A stretch of 64,000 nt of DNA from Parcubacteria group bacterium (GTDB lineage: Bacteria > Patescibacteriota > Minisyncoccia > 2-02-FULL-40-12). The stretch covers positions 5,036-69,035 of the forward strand of contig JACPLU010000001.1 of the NCBI GenBank assembly GCA_016186395.1, written 5' to 3'. The notes beneath the pieces were generated by a model that ran no database searches, had not been told where the DNA came from, and was given only the letters and a program-made list of their open reading frames with translations. Position 1 is the first letter of the stretch. Each line of letters begins with the position of its first letter. The position numbers and the translations under genes are program-made. Shown piece after piece: positions 5,349 to 54,617 of this stretch.

Positions 5349-5410
5349 TTGAAATTTGTGGATAATTACAAAAAAATGCCCAAGTGGCGTTTTTTTGTTG
5401 GTTTCTGGGT

Positions 5411-5449
5411 TTGGTGAATAATACTATTTCTCTTTCTTCGTCCCCCCCC
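5411..5449. mobile_element. Partial copy (left end only) of the MITE-like element, followed by a C9 homopolymer
   Basis: tttggtgaataatactatttctctttcttcg matches the left arm of the 14994 and 30098 elements, then ccccccccc. Confidence 0.55.
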
Positions 5450-5684: not shown

Positions 5685-8497
5685 ATGACAAATCAATTTG
5701 TTTTTCCTCAAATTTCGACAGACAATGATAAAGAAAAGTTGGTAACCAGTTCTAAGCAAGGAAACGGAAAGTCTTATGGTTTAAACTGGCCCAGGTTTTT
5801 TGGCGAAGGTGATCCCTATGACTTTATTCAATGGGAAAGAAGGACAGCAAAAATAACCAAATCTGATGGCAGTATAGTTTTTGAGCAGAAAGATATTGAG
5901 GCACCCTCTTTTTGGTCTCAAACGGCTACAGATATTGTTGCCTCAAAATATTTCAGGGGGAAGATTAACAGTCCGGAAAGAGAAACAAGTGTTAGGCAGA
6001 TGATTGATCGAGTTAGTATTACGATAGCTAATTGGGGAAAAGCCGAAGGAAGGTTTATAAGTGATCAGGATTACGAAAACTTTTTACAAGATTTGAAATT
6101 TTTGCTGATAAATCAATACGCGTCTTTTAACAGTCCTGTTTGGTTTAATGTGGGTGTTTATGAACGTCCTCAATGTTCAGCTTGTTTTATCTTATCTGTA
6201 AAAGACGATATGCAATCCATCATGGATTGGGTTCAGGATGAAGGCTGGATATTTAAGAACGGTTCTGGTTCTGGAGTCAATCTTTCTTCTTTGCGCTCTT
6301 CCAAAGAGCCTTTATCCAAAGGTGGTCATTCTTCTGGTCCAGTCTCTTTCATGAAGGCTGCTGACGGCATGGCTAACTCGATTCGTTCCGGTGGAACAAC
6401 TCGACGCGCTGCCAAAATGGTAATTCTAAATGCAGATCACCCCGATATCAAAGATTTTATTTATTCTAAAAAAATAATTGAGGACATGACTAAAGCTTTG
6501 GCTCGAGAAGGCTTTAAAGATTCAATTACCGCAGATCTTTTTGACCCTTATACTCTTTTGCCGTATCAAAATGCTAATAATTCTGTTCGGGTGACAAATG
6601 AGTTTATGCATGCAGTAAAAGAAAATCGGGATTGGAATTTAAAAGCTGTTACTTCGGGAGATGTGATTGAGAGGATGCCAGCGAAAGATATACTTAGATG
6701 GTGTGCAGAGGCCGCTTGGCACTCTGCCGATCCAGGAATGCAATATGACACGGTTATAAACGATTGGCATACGTGTCCCAATAGTGGAAGGATTAGCGCC
6801 TCAAATCCATGCTCTGAATACATGCATCTTGATAACAGCGCCTGTAACCTTGCCTCACTGAACCTTTTAAAGTTTTTGCGTGAAGATGGAACTTTTGACG
6901 TCAATACTTTTAAAAATGCCGTTGGAACAATTATTCTTGCTCAAGATATTTTAGTTGATAATTCATCTTATCCAACTGAAAAAATAACCGAGAACGCTAA
7001 GAACTATCGTGAGTTAGGACTGGGTTATGCAAATCTTGGAGCTTTACTTATGACATTGGGACTTCCATATGATTCTGATCAAGGTAGGGCGTTGGCTGGT
7101 AGCATCACATCTTTAATGTGTGGGGAGGCTTATAGGATGTCGGCTATTATGGCGTCAAAATCTGGCCCCTTTGGTGGTTATATGAAAAATGAAGGACCAA
7201 TGTTGCGTGTTATAGAGAAGCATCAAAAAGCAGCCGATAATTTGGTTGAAAATATTAGATCAGATGGTCTAATTAATGAAGAAGACCTAATTTCTAACAG
7301 TCAATCTGTTTGGTATGAAGCGTTGGAATTGGGTAAACAGTACGGATACCGCAATTCTCAAGTTACAGTGCTTGCTCCTACGGGTACGATTTCGTTTATG
7401 ATGGATTGTAAAACAACAGGAATTGAACCGGATCTTGCTTTGGTAAGTTATAAAAAACTGGTTGGCGGAGGAACAATAAAATTAGTAAATAACCAAGTGC
7501 CGTCAGCTTTAAGGCGGCTTGGTTATTCTGAAGAACAGGTAAAATTATTTCGGATCATCTCATAGAAAAGGATACCATAGAGGGAGCTCCCGGACTTAAA
7601 GGGGAAGATTTGGCAGTTTTTGATTGTTCATTTAAACCACAAAATGGTAAAAGAACAATCAATTATATGGGACATCTTAAAATGATGGCGGTTGCTCAGC
7701 CATTTATATCCGGGGCTATTTCTAAAACTGTTAATCTTCCAAGCGAGGCAACTGTAGAGGATATAGAGCAGGCATTTATTGATTCTTGGGAGTTGGGTCT
7801 TAAAGCAGTCGCTTTTTATAGAGATGGTTCAAAAACCATACAGCCGTTAAGTACGTCAAAAGAAGATAAATTAGTTGAGCACATTAACGGATATACGCGT
7901 ATAAAACTGCCAGATGAACGGCCTTCTATAACCCATAAATTTACAATTGGTGGTTATGAGGGCTACATAACAACAGGTCTTTATCCGGGTACTCAAAAGC
8001 CCGGGGAGACTTTTCTAGTTGCTGCGAAAGAAGGCAGTACCGTATCGGGGTTATTAGATACAATTGCAACTTTAATTTCTATGTGTTTACAGTCCGGAAT
8101 TCCACTTAAGACCTTGGTCAAAAAGTTTAAGGATTTGCGTTTTGAACCAGCTGGTTATACAAACAACCCGGAAGTTCCTTTGGCAAAATCAATTGTTGAC
8201 TATGTATTTCGATATCTGGGTACAAAGTTTTTAACTCCAGAAGATAAGGAAGAAGTCTTTGGACCGCCTCATGATTTTAACGCTTCTGAAAAGGATATGA
8301 GTGCGATTACTACGCTGGCCTCCATAAATAATGTTCAAGTTTCCTCGGATCCGCTTCTTTGGAATCCACCGCCTAGACTCGGCGAGGCTGGCAACGAAGC
8401 GAGTGCTCCTGTTTGTAACTGCGGTGCTTTAATGTTTAGAGCCGGTTCTTGTTATACTTGTCCTAACTGTTTTTCTACTACTGGGGTTTGCAATTAA
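5685..8497 (+). CDS. nrdJ: Class II (adenosylcobalamin-dependent) ribonucleotide reductase NrdJ, interrupted by a -1 frameshift near 7541-7546
   Basis: ORF 5685-7565 and ORF 7610-8497 both carry RNR motifs (NPCSEYMHLDNSACNLASLNL; VFDCSFK...AVAQPFISGAISKTVN; C-terminal CxxC...CxxC). Reading from 7541 in the second frame gives the continuous KIISDHLIEKDTIEGAPGLKGEDLAVFDCSF. Confidence 0.8.
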
Positions 8498-13127: not shown

Positions 13128-13214
13128 TTAATGTCTAGTGACTAAAGTCTAGAGTCTAGGGTCTAAAGACTTTAAAAAATTTTGCTTTAGACTTTAGCCA
13201 TTAGACTTTAAGCC
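13128..13214. repeat. Family A hairpin repeat
   Basis: taatgtctagtgactaaag...gtctaaagac-tttaaaaaattttg-ctttagac tttagccattagactttaag. Confidence 0.8.
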
Positions 13215-13224
13215 TTATTCACTG

Positions 13225-14953: not shown

Positions 14954-14993
14954 AATTTTTCGCCTTTCTCAATAAAATATAAAATTGAAAGAA

Positions 14994-15198
14994 CTTGATA
15001 AATAATACTCTTTCTCTTTCTTCGCAAACCCCAGCGTGGTTTGCTCAGGGGTTGAGCTCTTTGCTCTTATCCAACTCTTTCTTTTGAAAGAGCTGGGTAA
15101 ACCATGCCCGTCCCGATTTCTGCTCCGCAGAATCGAGGATCCTCGATAGCATCGGGACTACGGGCTCAAAACCCGTTCAAGAGTATTATTCACCAAGT
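14994..15198. mobile_element. MITE-like element, copy 1 (about 205 bp; 19-bp TIR CTTGGTGAATAATACTCTT; palindromic core AATCGAGGATCCTCGATT; central hairpin cassette variant 1)
   Basis: Left end cttgataaataatactctt and right end aagagtattattcaccaag are inverted. Both arms are nearly identical to the inverted arms of the 30098-30317 copy. It is inserted between rpsG and fusA. Confidence 0.8.
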
Positions 15199-15266
15199 TC
15201 AATTGAAAAGGTAAATATTAAAATGACAAATAAATTTTAAATTTTGCATTGTCATTCTGAATTTTT

Positions 15267-20477: not shown

Positions 20478-21113
20478 ATGACTAAGTTTATTCTAGGTAA
20501 AAAAATCGGTATGTCGCAAGTATTTAAAGAAGACGGAGCGGTTATTCCGGTTACTTTAGTTGAAGCCGGACCAGTTACAGTCACCAAGCTTAGGACAAAA
20601 GAAAAAGACGGTTATGAAGCGATCCAGATAGGATCGCAAAAATCAAAAATCAAAAATCCCCGGCCTCGCCAAGCGAAGCGGGGCGGGCAAAAATCAAAAT
20701 TTGAGAACCTGAAAGAATTTAAACCCAAGTTTCAAGATTCAAGTTTCAAGATTCAAGACTTCACTCTTGGTCAAAAAATTGATGTATCTATTTTTGAAGA
20801 AGGAGAAGTTGTAAAAATTAGCGGAGTTTCTAAGGGTAAGGGTTTTCAAGGAGGAGTGAAACGTCATGGATTTCACGGTATGCCGGCAAGTCATGGTCAT
20901 AAGCATGTTACTCGTACTCCAGGATCAATCGGGCAGAGGTTTCCACAGCACACTCTTAAAGGAACAAGAATGGCTGGTCATATGGGTCATGAAAGGGTAA
21001 CTGTTGAGGGGTTAAAAGTTGTTAAGGTAGACAAGGAAAATAATATTTTATTGATAAAAGGAGCGATTCCGGGTAGACGGGGAACTCTAGTTGAGATTGT
21101 TAATGATAATTAA
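20478..21113 (+). CDS. rplC: 50S ribosomal protein uL3 (contains an in-frame family B-like tandem unit at 20728-20760)
   Basis: GKKIGMSQVF...VTKGKGFQG...HGSIGQRFPQ. The internal aagtttcaagattcaagtttcaagattcaagac encodes KFQDSSFKIQDF. Confidence 0.95.
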   Translation: MTKFILGKKIGMSQVFKEDGAVIPVTLVEAGPVTVTKLRTKEKDGYEAIQIGSQKSKIKNPRPRQAKRGGQKSKFENLKEFKPKFQDSSFKIQDFTLGQKIDVSIFEEGEVVKISGVSKGKGFQGGVKRHGFHGMPASHGHKHVTRTPGSIGQRFPQHTLKGTRMAGHMGHERVTVEGLKVVKVDKENNILLIKGAIPGRRGTLVEIVNDN

Positions 21114-24117: not shown

Positions 24118-24747
24118 TTGGCACAAAAAAATTCACCCATCGCAAATAGGCTTGGAATTATCGAGGATTGGAGATCTCGGTGGTTTTCTATTAAAAACTA
24201 CAAATCCTATCTTCATGATGATTTGAGAATCCGTGAATATTTAGACAAGCGGTTACGGGGTTTTTCTGTGGACAAGATAGAAATTGAAAGAAGCCCGGGC
24301 CAGTTAATGTTGCGTCTATGGACTGCTAGGCCGGGTTTGATTATTGGTCGTGGGGGTACTGGTATAGAAGAGTTGAAAAGCGAGTTGGAGTCAATTATTG
24401 AAGATAAAACGAGAGTTAGACTCGAAGTTCAAGAAATAAAAAAACCGACGATGTCTGCCGCTATTGTAGCCGAACAGATTGCCGAACAGATTGAAAGAAG
24501 GGTGCCATTTAGAAGAACGATGAAACAGGCCTTCGCAAAAATTATTGCTAATCCTGAAGTTAAGGGAGCCAAAATTCAAATTTCTGGAAGGCTGGACGGG
24601 AGCGAGATTGCCAGAGAAGAACATACTGAATCAGGCCTACTTCCTTTACAGACATTGAGGGAAAAAATTGATTATGCTCAAAATACTGCTTTTACAACTT
24701 ATGGCACCGTAGGAATCAAGGTGTGGATCTATAAACCAGGCGACTAA
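24076..24747 (+). CDS. rpsC: 30S ribosomal protein uS3 (the track start lies inside repeat D; probable true start is TTG at 24118)
   Basis: IANRLGIIEDWRSRWF...KH-domain GRGG...TMKQAFA...GRLDGSEIAR. The first 14 codons are encoded by the repeat. Confidence 0.9.
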   Translation: MNAIRIISIFVSQNLAQKNSPIANRLGIIEDWRSRWFSIKNYKSYLHDDLRIREYLDKRLRGFSVDKIEIERSPGQLMLRLWTARPGLIIGRGGTGIEELKSELESIIEDKTRVRLEVQEIKKPTMSAAIVAEQIAEQIERRVPFRRTMKQAFAKIIANPEVKGAKIQISGRLDGSEIAREEHTESGLLPLQTLREKIDYAQNTAFTTYGTVGIKVWIYKPGD

Positions 24748-24832
24748 AGACCAAAGTCTAAAGCTCAGTGATTAAAGACCAAAGCCAGAAATTTAATTAG
24801 CCTTAGCCTTTAGTCATTAAACTTTAGACAAG
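24743..24832. repeat. Family A hairpin repeat (the rpsC stop codon lies inside it)
   Basis: gactaaagaccaaagtctaaag...ctttagtcattaaactttagac. Confidence 0.8.
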
Positions 24833-24838
24833 TTTTGT

Positions 24839-27148: not shown

Positions 27149-27214
27149 AGCATGTAGCATGTAACCCGAATCATTTAAAAAGTTTTAGGTTTCAGGTTTC
27201 AGGTTTTACGATTC
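27146..27214. repeat. Family B repeat supplying the rplE stop (TCATGA) and the rpsZ start (TTCATGG)
   Basis: aatcatgaagcatgtagcatgtaacc...gtttcaggtttcaggttttacgattcatgg. Confidence 0.75.
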
Positions 27215-30100: not shown

Positions 30101-30317
30101 AAGTGGGCTTGGTGAATAATACTCTTGAACGGGTTTTGAGCCCGTAGTCCCGATGCTATCGAGGATCCTCGATTCTGCGGAGCAGAAATCGGGACGGGCA
30201 TGGTTTTCTCTGTCTGGATTTACAGTCCAGATAGAGAAAGAGCGAAGGGCTCAACCCCTGAGCAAACCACGCTGGGGTTTGCGAAGAAAGAGAAAGAGTA
30301 TTATTCACCAAGCTCAC
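30098..30317. mobile_element. MITE-like element, copy 2 (inverted relative to copy 1; central cassette variant 2), inserted between rplO and secY
   Basis: cttggtgaataatactctt...aagagtattattcaccaag. The arms are the reverse complement of copy 1's arms. The central 45 bp differ and form an 11-bp hairpin (ctctatctgga/tccagacagag). Confidence 0.85.
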
Positions 30318-33268: not shown

Positions 33269-33986
33269 TAAACTTTCAGTCATTGTTCCTGCCTTTAATG
33301 AATCAGAAAGAATAATCCCGACTTTAGATTCTCTAAATAATTATTTGTCTAAACAGTCTTATGATTGGGAAGTTTTGGTAGTAAACGATGGTTCGACTGA
33401 CAATACTGCTGAAGTGGTTAGGAGTTTCATGTTTCATGTTTCAGGTTTCAGGTTGTTGGATAACAAAGAAAATCATGGCAAGGGTTGGGTAGTAAGGCAG
33501 GGAATGCTAGCGGCAGAAGGAGATTTTAGATTATTTATGGATGCTGATAACGCAACCAGAATTGAAACTGTTGAAAAATTCTGGCCCCTTTTTAATCAAG
33601 GTTATGATGTAGTAATTGCTTCAATTGGTATTAAGGGAGCGGACGTAGCTGGTACAGAGAAATTTTATCGGCGTATCTTTGGAAAACTGGGTAATCTTTG
33701 GATTCAATTTTGGGTTACACCCGGGATATTGGATACACAAAGAGGATTTAAAATGTTTTCAAAAGTGGCAGCCGGTAAAATTTTTCCAAAGCTTAAAATT
33801 CTAAAGTGGGGATTTGATGTAGAGGTTTTGGCTTTGGCAAGAAAATTTACTTTTAAGATAAAAGAGGTTCCAATAAAATGGGTTAATGATCCGAAGAGTC
33901 ACGTTAAGTTAACTGCTTATATTCAAGTTTTACTTGAGGTTTTGAAAATAAGATGGAATCTATGGACAAACAAATATAATGTCTAA
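33228..33986 (+). CDS. Family 2 glycosyltransferase (polyprenyl-phosphate sugar synthase-like); contains a second in-frame family B unit at 33424-33456
   Basis: LSVIVPAFNESERI...VLVVNDGSTDNT, DxD-like MDADN. The internal gtttcatgtttcatgtttcaggtttcagg encodes SFMFHVSGF. Confidence 0.8.
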   Translation: MIHVSRFAFHVSRIKLSVIVPAFNESERIIPTLDSLNNYLSKQSYDWEVLVVNDGSTDNTAEVVRSFMFHVSGFRLLDNKENHGKGWVVRQGMLAAEGDFRLFMDADNATRIETVEKFWPLFNQGYDVVIASIGIKGADVAGTEKFYRRIFGKLGNLWIQFWVTPGILDTQRGFKMFSKVAAGKIFPKLKILKWGFDVEVLALARKFTFKIKEVPIKWVNDPKSHVKLTAYIQVLLEVLKIRWNLWTNKYNV

Positions 33987-34060
33987 TGACTAAAGACCAA
34001 AGACTAAAGCTTTTTCAATCAAGCTCTAGACTCTAGATTTTTGACTTTAGTCTTTAGATC
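33982..34060. repeat. Family A hairpin repeat (supplies the GT2 stop codon and the 5' end of the galT ORF)
   Basis: taatgactaaagaccaaagactaaag...ctctagactctagatttttgactttagtctttagatc. Confidence 0.8.
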
Positions 34061-35051: not shown

Positions 35052-35059
35052 TTTATAAA

Positions 35060-35117
35060 CTTGGCGAATAATACTCTTTCTCTTTCTTCGCAAAACCTGT
35101 TCAAGAGTATTATTCCG
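35060..35117. mobile_element. Deletion-derivative (mini) copy of the MITE, with both termini fused
   Basis: cttggcgaataatactctttctctttcttcgcaaaacc joined to tgttcaagagtattattcc. Confidence 0.7.
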
Positions 35118-35131
35118 CCATGCTTTAATTT

Positions 35132-37766: not shown

Positions 37767-37770
37767 TCAA

Positions 37771-37825
37771 ATGTCTAATGTCCAAGGCTCAAAGCATTAG
37801 TCTTTGGTCTTTAGACTTTAGTCAA
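37771..37825. repeat. Family A hairpin repeat
   Basis: atgtctaatgtccaaggctcaaagcattagtctttggtctttagactttagtc. The track ORF start at 37778 lies inside it. Confidence 0.75.
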
Positions 37826-37852
37826 AAACCATGGTTTACACTATTCATTTTC

Positions 37853-39141: not shown

Positions 39142-39149
39142 TTTTATAT

Positions 39150-39440
39150 GGTAGATCGGGTGATTGCCTTGATGTCATAGTCAGGGAGGAAAGTCCGAAC
39201 ACTCACCTAGCGCTTTCATTGAAAGAGCTGGGTAAAATGGTAGCAGGTAACGCCTGCCATGCAAAAGCATAGAGGTGCGAACAGTGACGTCTGCGGCGCA
39301 AGCCAAAGAGAGCCCAATCCCAAGCTAGTAGGCTTAACTCCGTTATAGGGACAAAAAAACGGAGGTGAAACGAGTATTGCTATGGTAACATGGCGATCCG
39401 CTAAATCCTTACCTGGGTGCAAGATCAAACTTGATAATTT
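39150..39440 (+). ncRNA. rnpB: RNase P RNA (reduced bacterial type); boundaries approximate
   Basis: GGGAGGAAAGTCCGAAC (P4 5' strand signature), GCAGGTAACGCCTGC, GGAGGTGAAACG, AACTCCG motifs in the canonical order. Confidence 0.6.
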
Positions 39441-39550
39441 TTAAAGATTATCAAAGGAACGTAGATCGCATTGAGGCTCGATGGCGACATCGGCCCCAGA
39501 TAAATAATCACACAAATACAGAATTCGGCTTATAGATCTACCACAATCTC

Positions 39551-46317: not shown

Positions 46318-46420
46318 AAAGGTCAAAACGCAAAAGGCAAAACCGCAACTCAAAAGTTAAATTTTAATTTTTGATTTGTATTTTTGAATTTAGATTTTTG
46401 AGTTTTGAATTATTTCTTTG
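46318..46420. repeat. Family C repeat
   Basis: gtcaaaggtcaaaacgcaaaaggcaaaacc...tttttgatttgtatttttgaatttagatttttgagttttgaatt. Confidence 0.7.
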
Positions 46421-50290: not shown

Positions 50291-50313
50291 CCGACGATTA
50301 ACGTCGGTATTTT
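50291..50313 (+). terminator. Rho-independent terminator
   Basis: ccgacg-attaa-cgtcgg followed by tatttt. Confidence 0.6.
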
Positions 50314-50340
50314 AATTGATTTTTAGCTTTTTCAGTGTTA

Positions 50341-50460
50341 AATTATATCTAGATTTGCCGATGTAGTCCCGATTTTGCTCTGCAAAATCGAGGATCCTCG
50401 ATGGCAAAGCCGTCGGGACTCAACGGCAGAGTCCCGACTTTGTCGAGGATCCTCGATTAT
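50341..50460. repeat. Nested palindromic element related to the MITE core (two copies of TCGAGGATCCTCGA with GTCCCGA/TCGGGAC-type arms), immediately upstream of tRNA-Thr
   Basis: gattttgc-tct-gcaaaatc, atcgaggatcctcgat, gtcgggact-N9-agtcccgac, tcgaggatcctcga. Confidence 0.65.
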
Positions 50461-50474
50461 TAGCAGAACTTAGA

Positions 50475-50546
50475 GCCGGCATAGCTCAGTGGTAGAGCAA
50501 CTGTTTTGTAAACAGTAGGTCGTCAGTTCAAATCTGACTGCCGGCT
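50475..50546 (+). tRNA. tRNA-Thr (anticodon UGU)
   Basis: Acceptor GCCGGCA/TGCCGGC, D-arm GCTC-AGTGGTA-GAGC, anticodon stem ACTGT/ACAGT with loop TTTGTAA, T-arm GTCAG-TTCAAAT-CTGAC. Confidence 0.85.
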
Positions 50547-50662
50547 CTAAGTTCTGGATAATCGGGGCAACGCTTTTGTAAAGCGAAGGTTCCGAGTTCA
50601 AGTCTCAGGGTCGGCTCTAACGGGATAAATAGGTTATGGGTTCAAATTCCTCTGTCGGCTTG
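50547..50662 (+). pseudogene. Two tandem degenerate tRNA-Thr-derived remnants (one near full length with intact anticodon loop and T-arm but an unpaired acceptor; one 3'-half only)
   Basis: ...ACGCTTTTGTAAAGCG...CCGAGTTCAAGTCTCAGGGTCGGCTCT, then ...ATGGGTTCAAATTCCTCTGTCGGCTTG. Both end in the (T/G)CGGCT(C/T)T acceptor-like tail of the intact gene. Confidence 0.55.
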
Positions 50663-50772
50663 TTGAATACAATGAAAAAGGGAACCAAGTGACACTAATT
50701 AAAACAAAAGTTTGAAGTTTTGGAGGTAACCATTATTTATCTTTTCCGAAATTTTTGCTATAATATTCACTA

Positions 50773-51847
50773 ATGGAAAATATACTAGAAAAACTAGATG
50801 ATTTGAAGGCTAAATACCGCTTAACGGCGGACAGTCTTTGACTTAGCTAATGATAAAAAAAGGCTTGAAGAGCTGTTAGAACAAATAAATAAGCCTGATT
50901 TCTGGGCCAACAAAGAATCTGCGGCTAAGGGGTTGCAAGAGTTATCCGGTCTAAAAGAAAAGATAAAACTGGCTGAAGATATTGAAGATTCGCTTTCTTT
51001 GTTGGTTGAAACAGAAATAAATGAAGATAGTAGCAGACAGATAGAAAAAGAATTAAACAAGCTTGAAAAGAAAATAAATCAATTTGAGCGCAACAATAGG
51101 TTTACCGGAAAGTATGATAAAAATAATGCAATTCTTTCCTTTCACTCCGGTGCCGGAGGTGTGGATGCTCAAGATTGGACATCCATGCTTTTAAAAATGT
51201 ATCAGCTTCTAAGTTCGCGGCGCGGTTGGCAGTTTAATGTATTGAATGAGTCGTTTGGAGAGCAGGGAGGTATTAAAAATGCAGTTATGGAAGTTTCCGG
51301 TCAGAATGTTTTTGGAATCTTAAAAAAAGAGAGTGGAGTCCATAGATTAGTTAGAGTCTCCCCTTTCTCGGCAAAGAATTTACGTCATACTTCATTTGCA
51401 TTAGTTGATATAATGCCGGAGATTGAGAAACCAGAATTCAAACTAGATATAAAAGATTTAAAAATAGATACGTTTAGATCGTCTGGTCCAGGAGGCCAGA
51501 ATGTAAATAAGTTAGAAACGGCGATAAGGATAACTCATGTTCCAACTGGTATCGTGGTTGCAGTTCAATCAGAGCGTTCCCAGGCCCAGAATAAAGACAA
51601 GGCTATGCAGTTGCTTTTTTCAAAATTGCATCAGGAATTAGAAAAAGAGCATGTAGACGAAGTTTCAAAACTTAAAACTAAACTTGCTACAGGAATAGAG
51701 TGGGGAAACCAAATACGTTCCTATGTTTTACACCCATATAGATTGGTGAAAGATCACAGAACTAATGTTCAGGTTTCAAATCCAGATGCGGTTTTAAATG
51801 GTGAGTTGGACGAATTTCTTGATGTCGAAGTAGCCACTAGCCAATAG
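50773..51847 (+). CDS. prfB: Peptide chain release factor 2 with the programmed +1 frameshift (CTT TGA C at 50836-50842)
   Basis: ORF1 MENILEKLDDLKAKYRLTADSL ends at the UGA; the +1 frame continues DLANDKKRLEELLEQ...SGAGG...GGQNVNK...RSYVLHPY (SPF and GGQ motifs). Confidence 0.9.
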
Positions 51848-53759: not shown

Positions 53760-53880
53760 CAGTCCTGTGACAGGTTCTGGCGACCACGACCCGTCTACGC
53801 TAAAGCTACGAACAGGTACCGCGGGTCGCGCGCCATCACATGATACTTTTCCGCCAAGGAATGTATCCCTGCCGTTGTTT
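53760..53880 (+). other. GC-rich structured segment immediately after tRNA-Gln
   Basis: cctgtgacagg hairpin; cgacccg...cgggtcg pairing; about 60% GC over 100 bp in an AT-rich locus. Confidence 0.35.
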
Positions 53881-54437: not shown

Positions 54438-54617
54438 ATGGAAAAACACTTCCTCTTTATTGCAGGTCGTACCACAAGCATAAAGAGTGGCAAATGGAAA
54501 CTTGTTTATACTGAAGCCTATCTTGATAGACGTGATGCGATAGGCCGGGAAAAGTTTTTGAAAAGTGGTTCTGGTCGTACTTATCTAAAAAAGCAATTAC
54601 GAAATTATTTAATGTAG
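54438..54617 (+). CDS. Small GIY-YIG-superfamily-like ORF (59 aa, C-terminal part of the domain only), in the same frame as ORF 53901 and separated only by TAA
   Basis: SGKWKLVYTEAYLDRRDAIGREKFLKSGSGR resembles the C-terminal half of small GIY-YIG proteins (...WKLVYYEEF...REKQIK.WK). Confidence 0.35.
   Translation: MEKHFLFIAGRTTSIKSGKWKLVYTEAYLDRRDAIGREKFLKSGSGRTYLKKQLRNYLM

Follow-up and report, generated by a model that had tools for sequence, protein, structure and literature searches.

The segment at positions 50341-50460 of the window (the whole 64-kb stretch analysed here, with ~36% GC, from a Patescibacteria genome) is in all likelihood part of a nested insertion complex of a small, non-coding, dyad-symmetric mobile DNA element that replaces a tRNA-Thr gene. 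The element, to which we give the name E, reads TCCCGA-(arm A)-TCGAGGATCCTCGA-(arm B)-TCGGGA. Two copies of it (U1 and U2) inserted without target duplication in the D-stem of a tRNA-Thr(UGU) gene and turned it into a three-piece pseudogene, and U2 holds, at the tip of its arm B, a complete tRNA-Thr(UGU) gene (Table 1). A preliminary description had seen in this segment a standalone nest of palindromes immediately upstream of tRNA-Thr. Every palindrome that it listed was confirmed at its position; the segment is not standalone, however, as it comprises one and two-thirds copies of a mobile element inserted in an older tRNA-Thr gene. The end at 50460 cuts the second unit, which runs on through the tRNA-Thr gene to 50567 (ATAATCGGGG), and the present tRNA-Thr sits within this second copy, not downstream of it.

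The disrupted tRNA-Thr locus

When 50367-50418 and 50432-50567 were removed in silico, ARAGORN folded the joined pieces into a 73-nt tRNA-Thr(tgt) cloverleaf with the length and layout of the intact gene and a few stem mismatches. The rebuilt cloverleaf implies that an older tRNA-Thr(UGU) gene was struck twice, at G10|C11 and at G24|C25, two facing steps of the D-stem (the vertical bar marks the break). Fragment 2, between the two insertions, matches the D-arm of the cargo (CTCAGTGGTAGAG) at 10/13 positions, and the second, overlapping 'tRNA-Thr' called by ARAGORN (50540-50617) is what remains of the 3' part of the old gene. No intact tRNA-Thr(UGU) gene other than the cargo stands at this locus, and the cargo is presumably the functional one. 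Arm B of U2, which holds it, consists in order of TTAT-TAG-CAGAACTTAGA, the tRNA-Thr gene and TCTAAGTTCTG-G-ATAA. The acceptor stem of the cargo is extended by 11 perfect leader/trailer base pairs into an 18-bp stem (50464-50481 with 50539-50556, a 100% inverted repeat), and such a leader/trailer stem is absent from the other three tRNAs of the window. The third tRNA-Thr-like piece further downstream is possibly the remnant of an even older round of replacement.

Table 1. Features of the tRNA-Thr locus, of the window and of other loci (window positions unless a locus number is given; a vertical bar marks a break).
Feature	Position	Strand	Sequence, site or basis
Ancestral tRNA-Thr(UGU) fragment 1 (tRNA positions 1-10)	50357..50366	+	GCCGATGTAG; ARAGORN on joined pieces
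E copy U1, complete	50367..50418		at tRNA position 10|11 (TAG|CTC)
U1 left end	50367-72		TCCCGA
U1 arm A	50373-87		TTTTGC-TCT-GCAAAA
U1 core	50388-401		TCGAGGATCCTCGA
U1 arm B	50402-12		TGGCAAAGCCG
U1 right end	50413-18		TCGGGA
Ancestral tRNA-Thr fragment 2 (D-arm, positions 11-24)	50419..50431	+	CTCAACGGCAGAG
E copy U2 with cargo	50432..50567		at tRNA position 24|25 (GAG|CA)
U2 left end	50432-37		TCCCGA
U2 arm A	50438-42		CTTTG
U2 core	50443-56		
U2 arm B	50457-50561		stem, tRNA-Thr, stem; inverted repeats
U2 right end	50562-67		TCGGGG; inverted repeats
Intact cargo tRNA-Thr(UGU)	50475..50547	+	ARAGORN; Rfam tRNA 76.4 bits
Ancestral tRNA-Thr fragment 3 (positions 25-73)	50568..50617	+	CAACGCTTTTGTAAAGCG...GGTCGGCT; including direct repeat
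Third tRNA-Thr-like piece (T-arm and 3' acceptor strand)	50630..50660	+	direct repeat; ACGGGA before it at 50621-50626
Palindrome	50371-50389		gattttgc-tct-gcaaaatc
Palindrome	50387-50402		atcgaggatcctcgat
Palindrome	50412-50438		gtcgggact-N-agtcccgac
Palindrome	50443-50456		tcgaggatcctcga
E copy in MITE 14992-15199	15111..15157		
E copy in MITE 30106-30313	30148..30194		exact reverse complement of the 15111-15157 copy
MITE-like family, long	14992-15199, 30106-30313		
MITE-like family, 50-bp minimal	35058-35123		
MITE-like family, one-ended	5408-5447		
Tandem-heptamer arrays	1183-1256, 13130-13218, 20726-20763, 24732-24834, 27182-27206, 33424-33454, 33978-34057, 37770-37828, 46360-46411		
Other hairpin families	L157 ~1040-1190; L161, L164 ~1090-1190; L162 ~1100-1200, 1440-1510; L137 500-1400		

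The DNA of the 120-nt segment folds at -32.2 kcal/mol (shuffles -13.4 +/- 2.8, z = -6.7), and the 261-nt complex 50357-50617 departs further from its shuffles (z = -12.1). In Logan assemblies of other runs of the same strain the region is identical base for base, which excludes an origin of the palindromes in the assembly or the linkers of a single data set. Two candidate features of the flanks were rejected. The GTAG before U1, considered as a signature of the repetitive extragenic palindromic (REP) type, is tRNA positions 7-10, and a 12-nt inverted repeat (50327/50669), considered as an outer arm, is not significant (~0.2 expected by chance).

Element E in the window and in other genomes

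The window contains the 14-mer TCGAGGATCCTCGA four times (15133, 30159, 50388, 50443) against 0.01 expected, with four or more reached in 0/100 shuffles, and AGTCCCGA six times against 0.76 expected. Apart from U1 and U2, two copies of E lie in the long members of a family of miniature inverted-repeat transposable elements (MITEs), of which the 14-bp palindrome had been taken for the core. Both long MITEs contain one and the same E unit, inserted at GCCCGTAG|CGGGC, and the 50-bp version (35066-35115) is without the whole interior; E is therefore a passenger of the MITE and not its core. The idea that the palindromic core is independent of the MITE proper was borne out, as more than 100 loci in other genomes have it on its own. 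The MITE-like family, separate from E, is itself palindromic, with terminal repeats of 19-21 bp (CTTGGTGAATAATACTCTT) and modular internal hairpins, in one of which the two long copies differ. All four E copies of the window have perfect cores and a search of the window for a further, degenerate copy found none; degenerate copies are common elsewhere.

Scanning GTDB with the pattern GTCCCGA-N(3-25)-TCGAGGATCCTCGA located E in at least 120 loci, in many classes of Patescibacteria and in Bacteroidales/Rikenellaceae. The Patescibacteria among the matches listed are Saccharibacteria, Paceibacterota and Yanofsky-, Sung-, Magasanik-, Kerfeld-, Lipton- and Wildermuthbacteria; three of the listed matches are in 'Gammaproteobacteria' metagenome-assembled genomes (MAGs) and seven are chance matches in high-GC coding DNA. 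The fetched loci (numbered with the prefix L) hold 129 instances of the palindrome, and 119 of these, the four of the window included, had both ends resolved and were used as units. The preliminary description would have been refuted by a motif without further copies and without conservation elsewhere; copies are plentiful and cross-phylum. Of the units, 10/119 are at most 100 nt from a tRNA, with ~2 expected.

The 26-nt core of E (TCCCGA / TCGAGGATCCTCGA / TCGGGA) is invariant, and between its parts stand two hairpin arms of free sequence, which differ between all copies and always pair with themselves. Perfect stems that start at the junction take up 55% of the arm bases on average, compared with 6.5% in shuffled sequence. 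In 24 distinct 11-nt arms 99.4% of the cells are paired, and double-sided changes number 27, a value that 0/500 shuffles reach (7.5 +/- 2 in shuffles). Triloops end 114/234 arms, and complementary loops are equally frequent (AAA 27 and TTT 23; TTC 14 and GAA 12). This balance of the loops and the perfect dyad of the core indicate that the two strands of E are equivalent, as for a DNA element and not an RNA gene. The copy in L144 bears a symmetric, compensated variant of the core, TCGCGGATCCGCGA. Concerning its folding, E can form either a four-way junction, made of an outer stem of 6-7 bp, arm A, a central hairpin and arm B, or two back-to-back hairpins with one bulged base each, and arms of 5 nt (CTTTG, TTTTA and others) form hairpins in the second way only. 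Four related half-sites can be recognised in it, TCCCGA, TCGAGGA, TCCTCGA and TCGGGA. None of the 119 units contains an open reading frame (ORF). In the window, Rfam 15 gave only tRNA and RNase P at the gathering score, and nothing credible over 50300-50700 at E<=10. Full-text searches of the literature brought up no description of E, the sole match to the exact 14-mer being a cloning primer, and the full-unit pattern had 0 matches in the viral contigs of IMG/VR, which gives no sign of a phage vector of E. A likeness of the core to the tRNA T-arm or to the 16S 3' end was set aside as too weak.

The mobility of E can be read from its insertion sites. Copies stand within tandem arrays of 6-7-mers whose register is undisturbed (L047, L082, L069, L125), within the arms of other E copies (L012, L025, L105, the nested copies of L025 and L105 being degenerate) and, in three cases of self-insertion (L035, L061, L077), at one position of the core, TCGAGGATC|CTCGA. 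Next to the left end, and on the complementary strand next to the right end, the flanking base is G in ~63% of cases and A in most of the rest; TTG, TAG and GAG are the most frequent flanks, and the target is a loose WWG|C. No target-site duplication was seen: excising TCCCGA...TCGGGA restores tRNAs and repeat register with no base extra or missing. The window itself has ~20 intergenic tandem-heptamer arrays (CTTTAGA, GTTTCAG, AATTTTG and others), often as inverted pairs that form long intergenic hairpins, and arrays of this kind are among the sites of precise E insertion in other genomes.

The tRNA-replacement architecture of the window is found in other loci as well. A metagenome scan keyed to the D-arm junction GGTAGAG|TCCCGA...core gave 17 loci, about eight of them distinct. 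The design of U2, with an old tRNA split at 24|25 and a tRNA of the same anticodon in arm B, is present in four distinct loci, namely L128, L131 and L135/136/141 with tRNA-Thr(CGU) and L138/140 with tRNA-Thr(UGU), and in each of them the leader and trailer on either side of the cargo are perfectly complementary. With one excision in silico the old tRNA is restored in L128, L135 and L138 (Thr) and in L108 (Cys), with the anticodon of the intact tRNA in the element arm. The split tRNA of L131 has suffered a deletion, and this locus also has a small TCCCGA...TCGGGA hairpin at 10|11, as with U1. In L108, E splits a tRNA-Cys in the anticodon loop, and a second, complete tRNA-Cys lies in arm A; there (128-360), the displaced and the cargo tRNA-Cys differ only by two compensated acceptor-stem pairs, as one would expect of a replacement that had to evade a sequence-specific nuclease. 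E copies also abut tRNA fragments in L036, L042, L058, L068, L090, L104, L110, L127, L130, L134 and L137.

The cargo tRNA of the window is identical to that of L138/L140 (73/73); between the same hosts PrfB is ~40-45% identical, the displaced resident tRNAs are 73% identical and the arm stems are unrelated. These genomes share the order tRNA-Thr then prfB, so the same locus was overwritten independently, and the comparison indicates that the cargo tRNA gene is spreading horizontally. On the reverse strand of L134, ~120-230 nt downstream of the match, a long perfect hairpin without an E core (CCCCGCACCTTTT...AAAAGGTGCGGGG) bears an intact tRNA-Val at its tip. The hairpin lies within the anticodon region of an older tRNA-Val whose D-arm also contains an E, which suggests that a tRNA within a hairpin may be a module able to move by itself.

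Proposed mobilisation of E and alternative explanations

We propose that E would move as DNA, either as half-hairpins with a bulged base (TCC-CGA..TCG-A-GGA and TCC-T-CGA..TCG-GGA) or as a whole four-way junction or cruciform. A symmetric enzyme, specific for structure and sequence and acting in trans, would cut at G|TCCCGA and TCGGGA|C and join E into (A/T)(A/T)G|C sites. An insertion in a single-copy tRNA gene would survive only if E brings a tRNA of the same anticodon and, as only matched replacements would survive there, the match of anticodons may need no special targeting. The host would then depend on the element-borne tRNA, a gene-replacement addiction.

Concerning the enzyme, an ORF survey of the window with Pfam searches of 10 unassigned ORFs revealed no transposase or recombinase. 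All-versus-all clustering of 1436 ORFs from 114 E loci gave no family common to more than five loci, and the 112 ORFs nearest E, inspected by eye, are mixed, with few GIY-YIG proteins. One neighbour of E is recurrent, a GIY-YIG protein of ~80 aa (8 ORFs in ~1 Mb of E loci), which in two loci (L087, L137) is encoded within 45-55 nt of the E core. L137 also shows three stacked tRNA-Met 5' fragments with a hairpin in each. Homologues of this protein were then fetched by protein similarity alone, independently of E, from nine distinct loci, and in 8/9 a displaced copy of a tRNA 5' part with one or more small triloop hairpins is followed by the GIY-YIG gene and by an intact tRNA. In 4/9, all of them tRNA-Glu cassettes, a unit with an E-type core ends 15-25 nt before the ATG (L144, with the variant core; L154; L156; and L159, with a degenerate core), and these units occupy two different D-arm positions and have different arms. 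The loci L157, L161, L162 and L164 (Ignavibacteria, Marinimicrobia and the candidate phyla radiation, CPR) carry hairpins of other families; examples of the mini or double triloop hairpins seen in displaced tRNA 5' copies beside GIY-YIG genes are TCAGCCAAAGGCTGA+TCCGCCTCTGGCGGA, CCACCGCTTTCAGCGGGG+TTCCGCCAAAGGCGGAA and TCCCGCATTTTGCGGGA. A truncated GIY-YIG (UPF0213) ORF of the window, at 54438-54617, contains the C-terminal half of the domain only.

These GIY-YIG proteins belong to UPF0213 (BH0048 / EF2693). Among characterised proteins they are closest to SLX1, a nuclease whose substrates are Holliday junctions and other branched DNA. By adjacency and homology, which are not proof, this similarity fits an element foldable as a four-way junction, and a small UPF0213/SLX1-like GIY-YIG nuclease in tRNA-linked cassettes next to E is our tentative choice as the most likely mobilising enzyme. 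A bolder reading, possible although doubtful, is that E and the 80-aa SLX1-like UPF0213 GIY-YIG nucleases are parts of a single system, shared across phyla, for overwriting host tRNA genes. In it, the nuclease would recognise the four-way-junction or cruciform core of E and cut at its feet, and E, alone or with a tRNA gene, would be joined into resident tRNA genes at the D-stem or the anticodon loop; this would destroy the resident gene and make the element-borne tRNA essential. If true, this would be a self-addicting, horizontally spreading 'tRNA replacement drive', and it would explain the hairpin-riddled tRNA pseudogenes beside tRNA genes in CPR, Bacteroidales, Ignavibacteria and Marinimicrobia.

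Several observations weigh against the account given so far. An empty-site allele is without example, since the contigs of the same strain are all identical and the nearest MurB relative is 49% identical. The window has neither transposase nor recombinase, only the truncated GIY-YIG ORF 4 kb away, and at 8 ORFs per ~1 Mb the majority of E copies have no GIY-YIG gene close by. Additionally, the E-bearing GIY-YIG loci are homologous tRNA-Glu cassettes and not fully independent observations, and the three matches in Gammaproteobacteria MAGs could be binning errors. Finally, each cargo tRNA is flanked by a different perfect stem, the window and L138 sharing the tRNA and not the stems.

E works as small, non-autonomous, palindromic mobile DNA of the MITE/REP type but lacks defining features of the named classes. 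Like a MITE it is short (47-136 bp in the window), non-coding, bounded by inverted ends (TCCCGA/TCGGGA) and multi-copy, being present four times in the window and in at least 120 other loci; unlike a MITE it makes no target-site duplication. No parent insertion sequence (IS) with E ends was seen, neither as an ORF in the 119 units nor among viral contigs, and E flanks small GIY-YIG genes in the tRNA-Glu cassettes. It resembles the Correia/NEMIS, RUP, ERIC and Rickettsia palindromic elements (tens to ~150 bp, non-coding, multi-copy, with inverted ends and a hairpin fold), which likewise insert into genes and each other with an enzyme in trans. Unlike those, E has terminal repeats of only 6-7 bp plus an internal 14-bp palindrome, and its 26-nt core is invariant across phyla while its arms are free and can hold a whole tRNA gene. 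Double-hairpin elements are also found in fungal (Allomyces) mitochondrial DNA. Repetitive hairpin elements are described from sponge mitochondrial DNA (PMC2800124). These elements too consist of two adjacent conserved hairpins, mobile, without protein, in intergenic positions and in structural RNA genes, but they differ from E in sequence and in their hosts, which are organelles, and no cargo genes are reported for them. Free-standing GIY-YIG homing endonuclease genes encode the Seg proteins of phage T4, with SegB in a tRNA cluster. As with T4 Seg, small GIY-YIG genes here lie beside tRNA genes, with duplicated tRNA 5' parts, and their products are similar in sequence to SLX1, a structure-specific nuclease; the proteins differ in being 80-aa catalytic domains without a DNA-binding domain, and only adjacency ties them to E. 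E is unusual in two ways: its core is frozen across phyla, and it can carry a whole tRNA gene that replaces the gene destroyed.

Of the readings in which E does not move as DNA, the one closest to the preliminary description would make it an immobile operator or structural DNA site, bound by a dimeric protein and regulating tRNA-Thr or its neighbours. Perfect palindromes of 14-16 bp, four related half-sites and a core conserved across phyla would suit such a site, but the copies interrupt tRNA genes that excision restores, they stand inside tandem repeats, a MITE and other E cores, decayed copies are common, and no position relative to genes or promoters is constant. The operator is thus largely refuted by the restored tRNAs and scattered contexts, and we rate it as very improbable. 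What survives of the dimeric-protein proposal is that a symmetric protein recognising the palindrome is plausible, probably a nuclease or recombinase, and not a regulator of the tRNA. Only slightly less improbable is an RNA-level four-way junction, namely a new bacterial tRNA intron or pre-tRNA processing signal that leaves the split tRNA functional. The position in tRNA units at the D-arm and anticodon loop, typical sites of archaeal introns, speaks for it, as do the strong covariation of the arms and the RNase III-like 18-bp leader/trailer stem of the cargo. Group I introns are moreover frequent in Patescibacteria tRNAs, in a report that does not mention E-type insertions (PMC13011429). Against an intron stand the perfect dyad of the core and the strand-symmetric loop counts, which leave no preferred strand, the dominance of triloops over GNRA/UUCG tetraloops, the absence of an Rfam intron match at E<=10, and junctions in perfect helices, without bulge-helix-bulge geometry. 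E also occurs in tandem repeats that do not look transcribed, and unlike the hosts of group I or archaeal bulge-helix-bulge introns, the split tRNAs are degenerate (mismatches in the window, the deletion in L131) and always accompanied by an intact copy with the same anticodon.

The tRNA fragments could also be attL/attR scars of integrase-driven islands since deleted, with the palindromes incidental, and partial tRNA duplications beside tRNA genes are indeed the classic integrase signature, to which the three successive tRNA-Thr 3' pieces of the locus could be added. Integrative elements that target tRNA genes likewise break the gene, supply a functional tRNA and leave displaced fragments. 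They are, however, kilobases long, encode an integrase, and recombine at and replace only the 3' part, unlike an E of ~140 bp that enters the D-stem with a complete second gene. The breaks here are at 10|11 and 24|25 with exactly one E unit between the fragments each time, not a 3'-end duplication bounding an island; the junctions GAG|TCCCGA...TCGGGA|CA recur in unrelated genomes; no integrase was found in the window or nearby, and no integrase-bearing island between the fragments was seen in the 17 + 120 loci. We consider such scars hardly credible.

A serious alternative, although still an unlikely one, concerns the enzyme: E may be mobilised by an HUH/Y1 transposase of the REP/RAYT or IS200/IS605 kind, or by a tyrosine recombinase acting on folded DNA as at attC, and the adjacency of GIY-YIG genes would then reflect only a shared preference for tRNA loci. 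Insertion without duplication, extra-helical bases in hairpins and insertion 3' of a short motif are hallmarks of the IS200/IS605, REP and attC systems. E has no target duplication, hairpins with a single extra-helical base and insertion 3' of TTG, TAG or GAG, and most of its copies are far from any GIY-YIG gene. With REP elements and bacterial interspersed mosaic elements (BIMEs), which have RAYT transposases, and with IS200/IS605 derivatives it shares imperfect hairpins, precise, duplication-free insertion and probable recognition as folded DNA. Several features tell against these enzymes. No HUH transposase or recombinase was seen among the 1436 ORFs around E, by clustering and inspection only, nor any RAYT-like cluster or TnpA. 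Known REPs are lineage-specific, whereas the core of E is the same in Patescibacteria and Bacteroidales; E is also a head-to-head double hairpin of exact two-fold symmetry, and it enters tRNA genes instead of being extragenic only. The ends of IS200/IS605 are direct hairpin repeats on one strand with a fixed tetra- or pentanucleotide target, unlike the dyad-related hairpins, equivalent strands and loose WWG|C target of E. The R-boxes of attC (GTTRRRY) are absent, and neither cassette arrays nor an integrase lie nearby.

Other features of the window and meaning of the finding

Apart from E, the prfB gene of the window has a classic programmed +1 frameshift site (CTT TGA C at 50836-50842), the ORF from 50933 being the post-shift frame. 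Directly after tRNA-Gln lie 100 nt that are unusually GC-rich (53761-53860). The bacterial type A RNase P RNA at 39148-39548 scores 102.7 bits against a gathering score of 100 and is divergent, of the CPR type. Two adjacent ORFs of 626 and 295 aa at 5685-8497 are suspected, from sequence alone, to be two parts of one class II ribonucleotide reductase, possibly through a frameshift, a split gene or an intervening element.

The replacement of tRNA genes by E would explain anomalous tRNA annotations in CPR genomes, among them tRNA fragments and calls that overlap or occur twice. The invariance of the 26-nt core between Patescibacteria and Bacteroidales implies a conserved recognition enzyme, for which the widespread UPF0213/YhbQ GIY-YIG proteins, to our knowledge without a known function, are a testable candidate, and the core can serve as a simple sequence marker for such events in any genome. 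Above all, a tiny element that breaks an essential single-copy tRNA gene and replaces it from its own hairpin arm would represent a new survival strategy, under which the element becomes indispensable to its host and tRNA genes turn into cassettes for horizontal exchange, even in minimal genomes.

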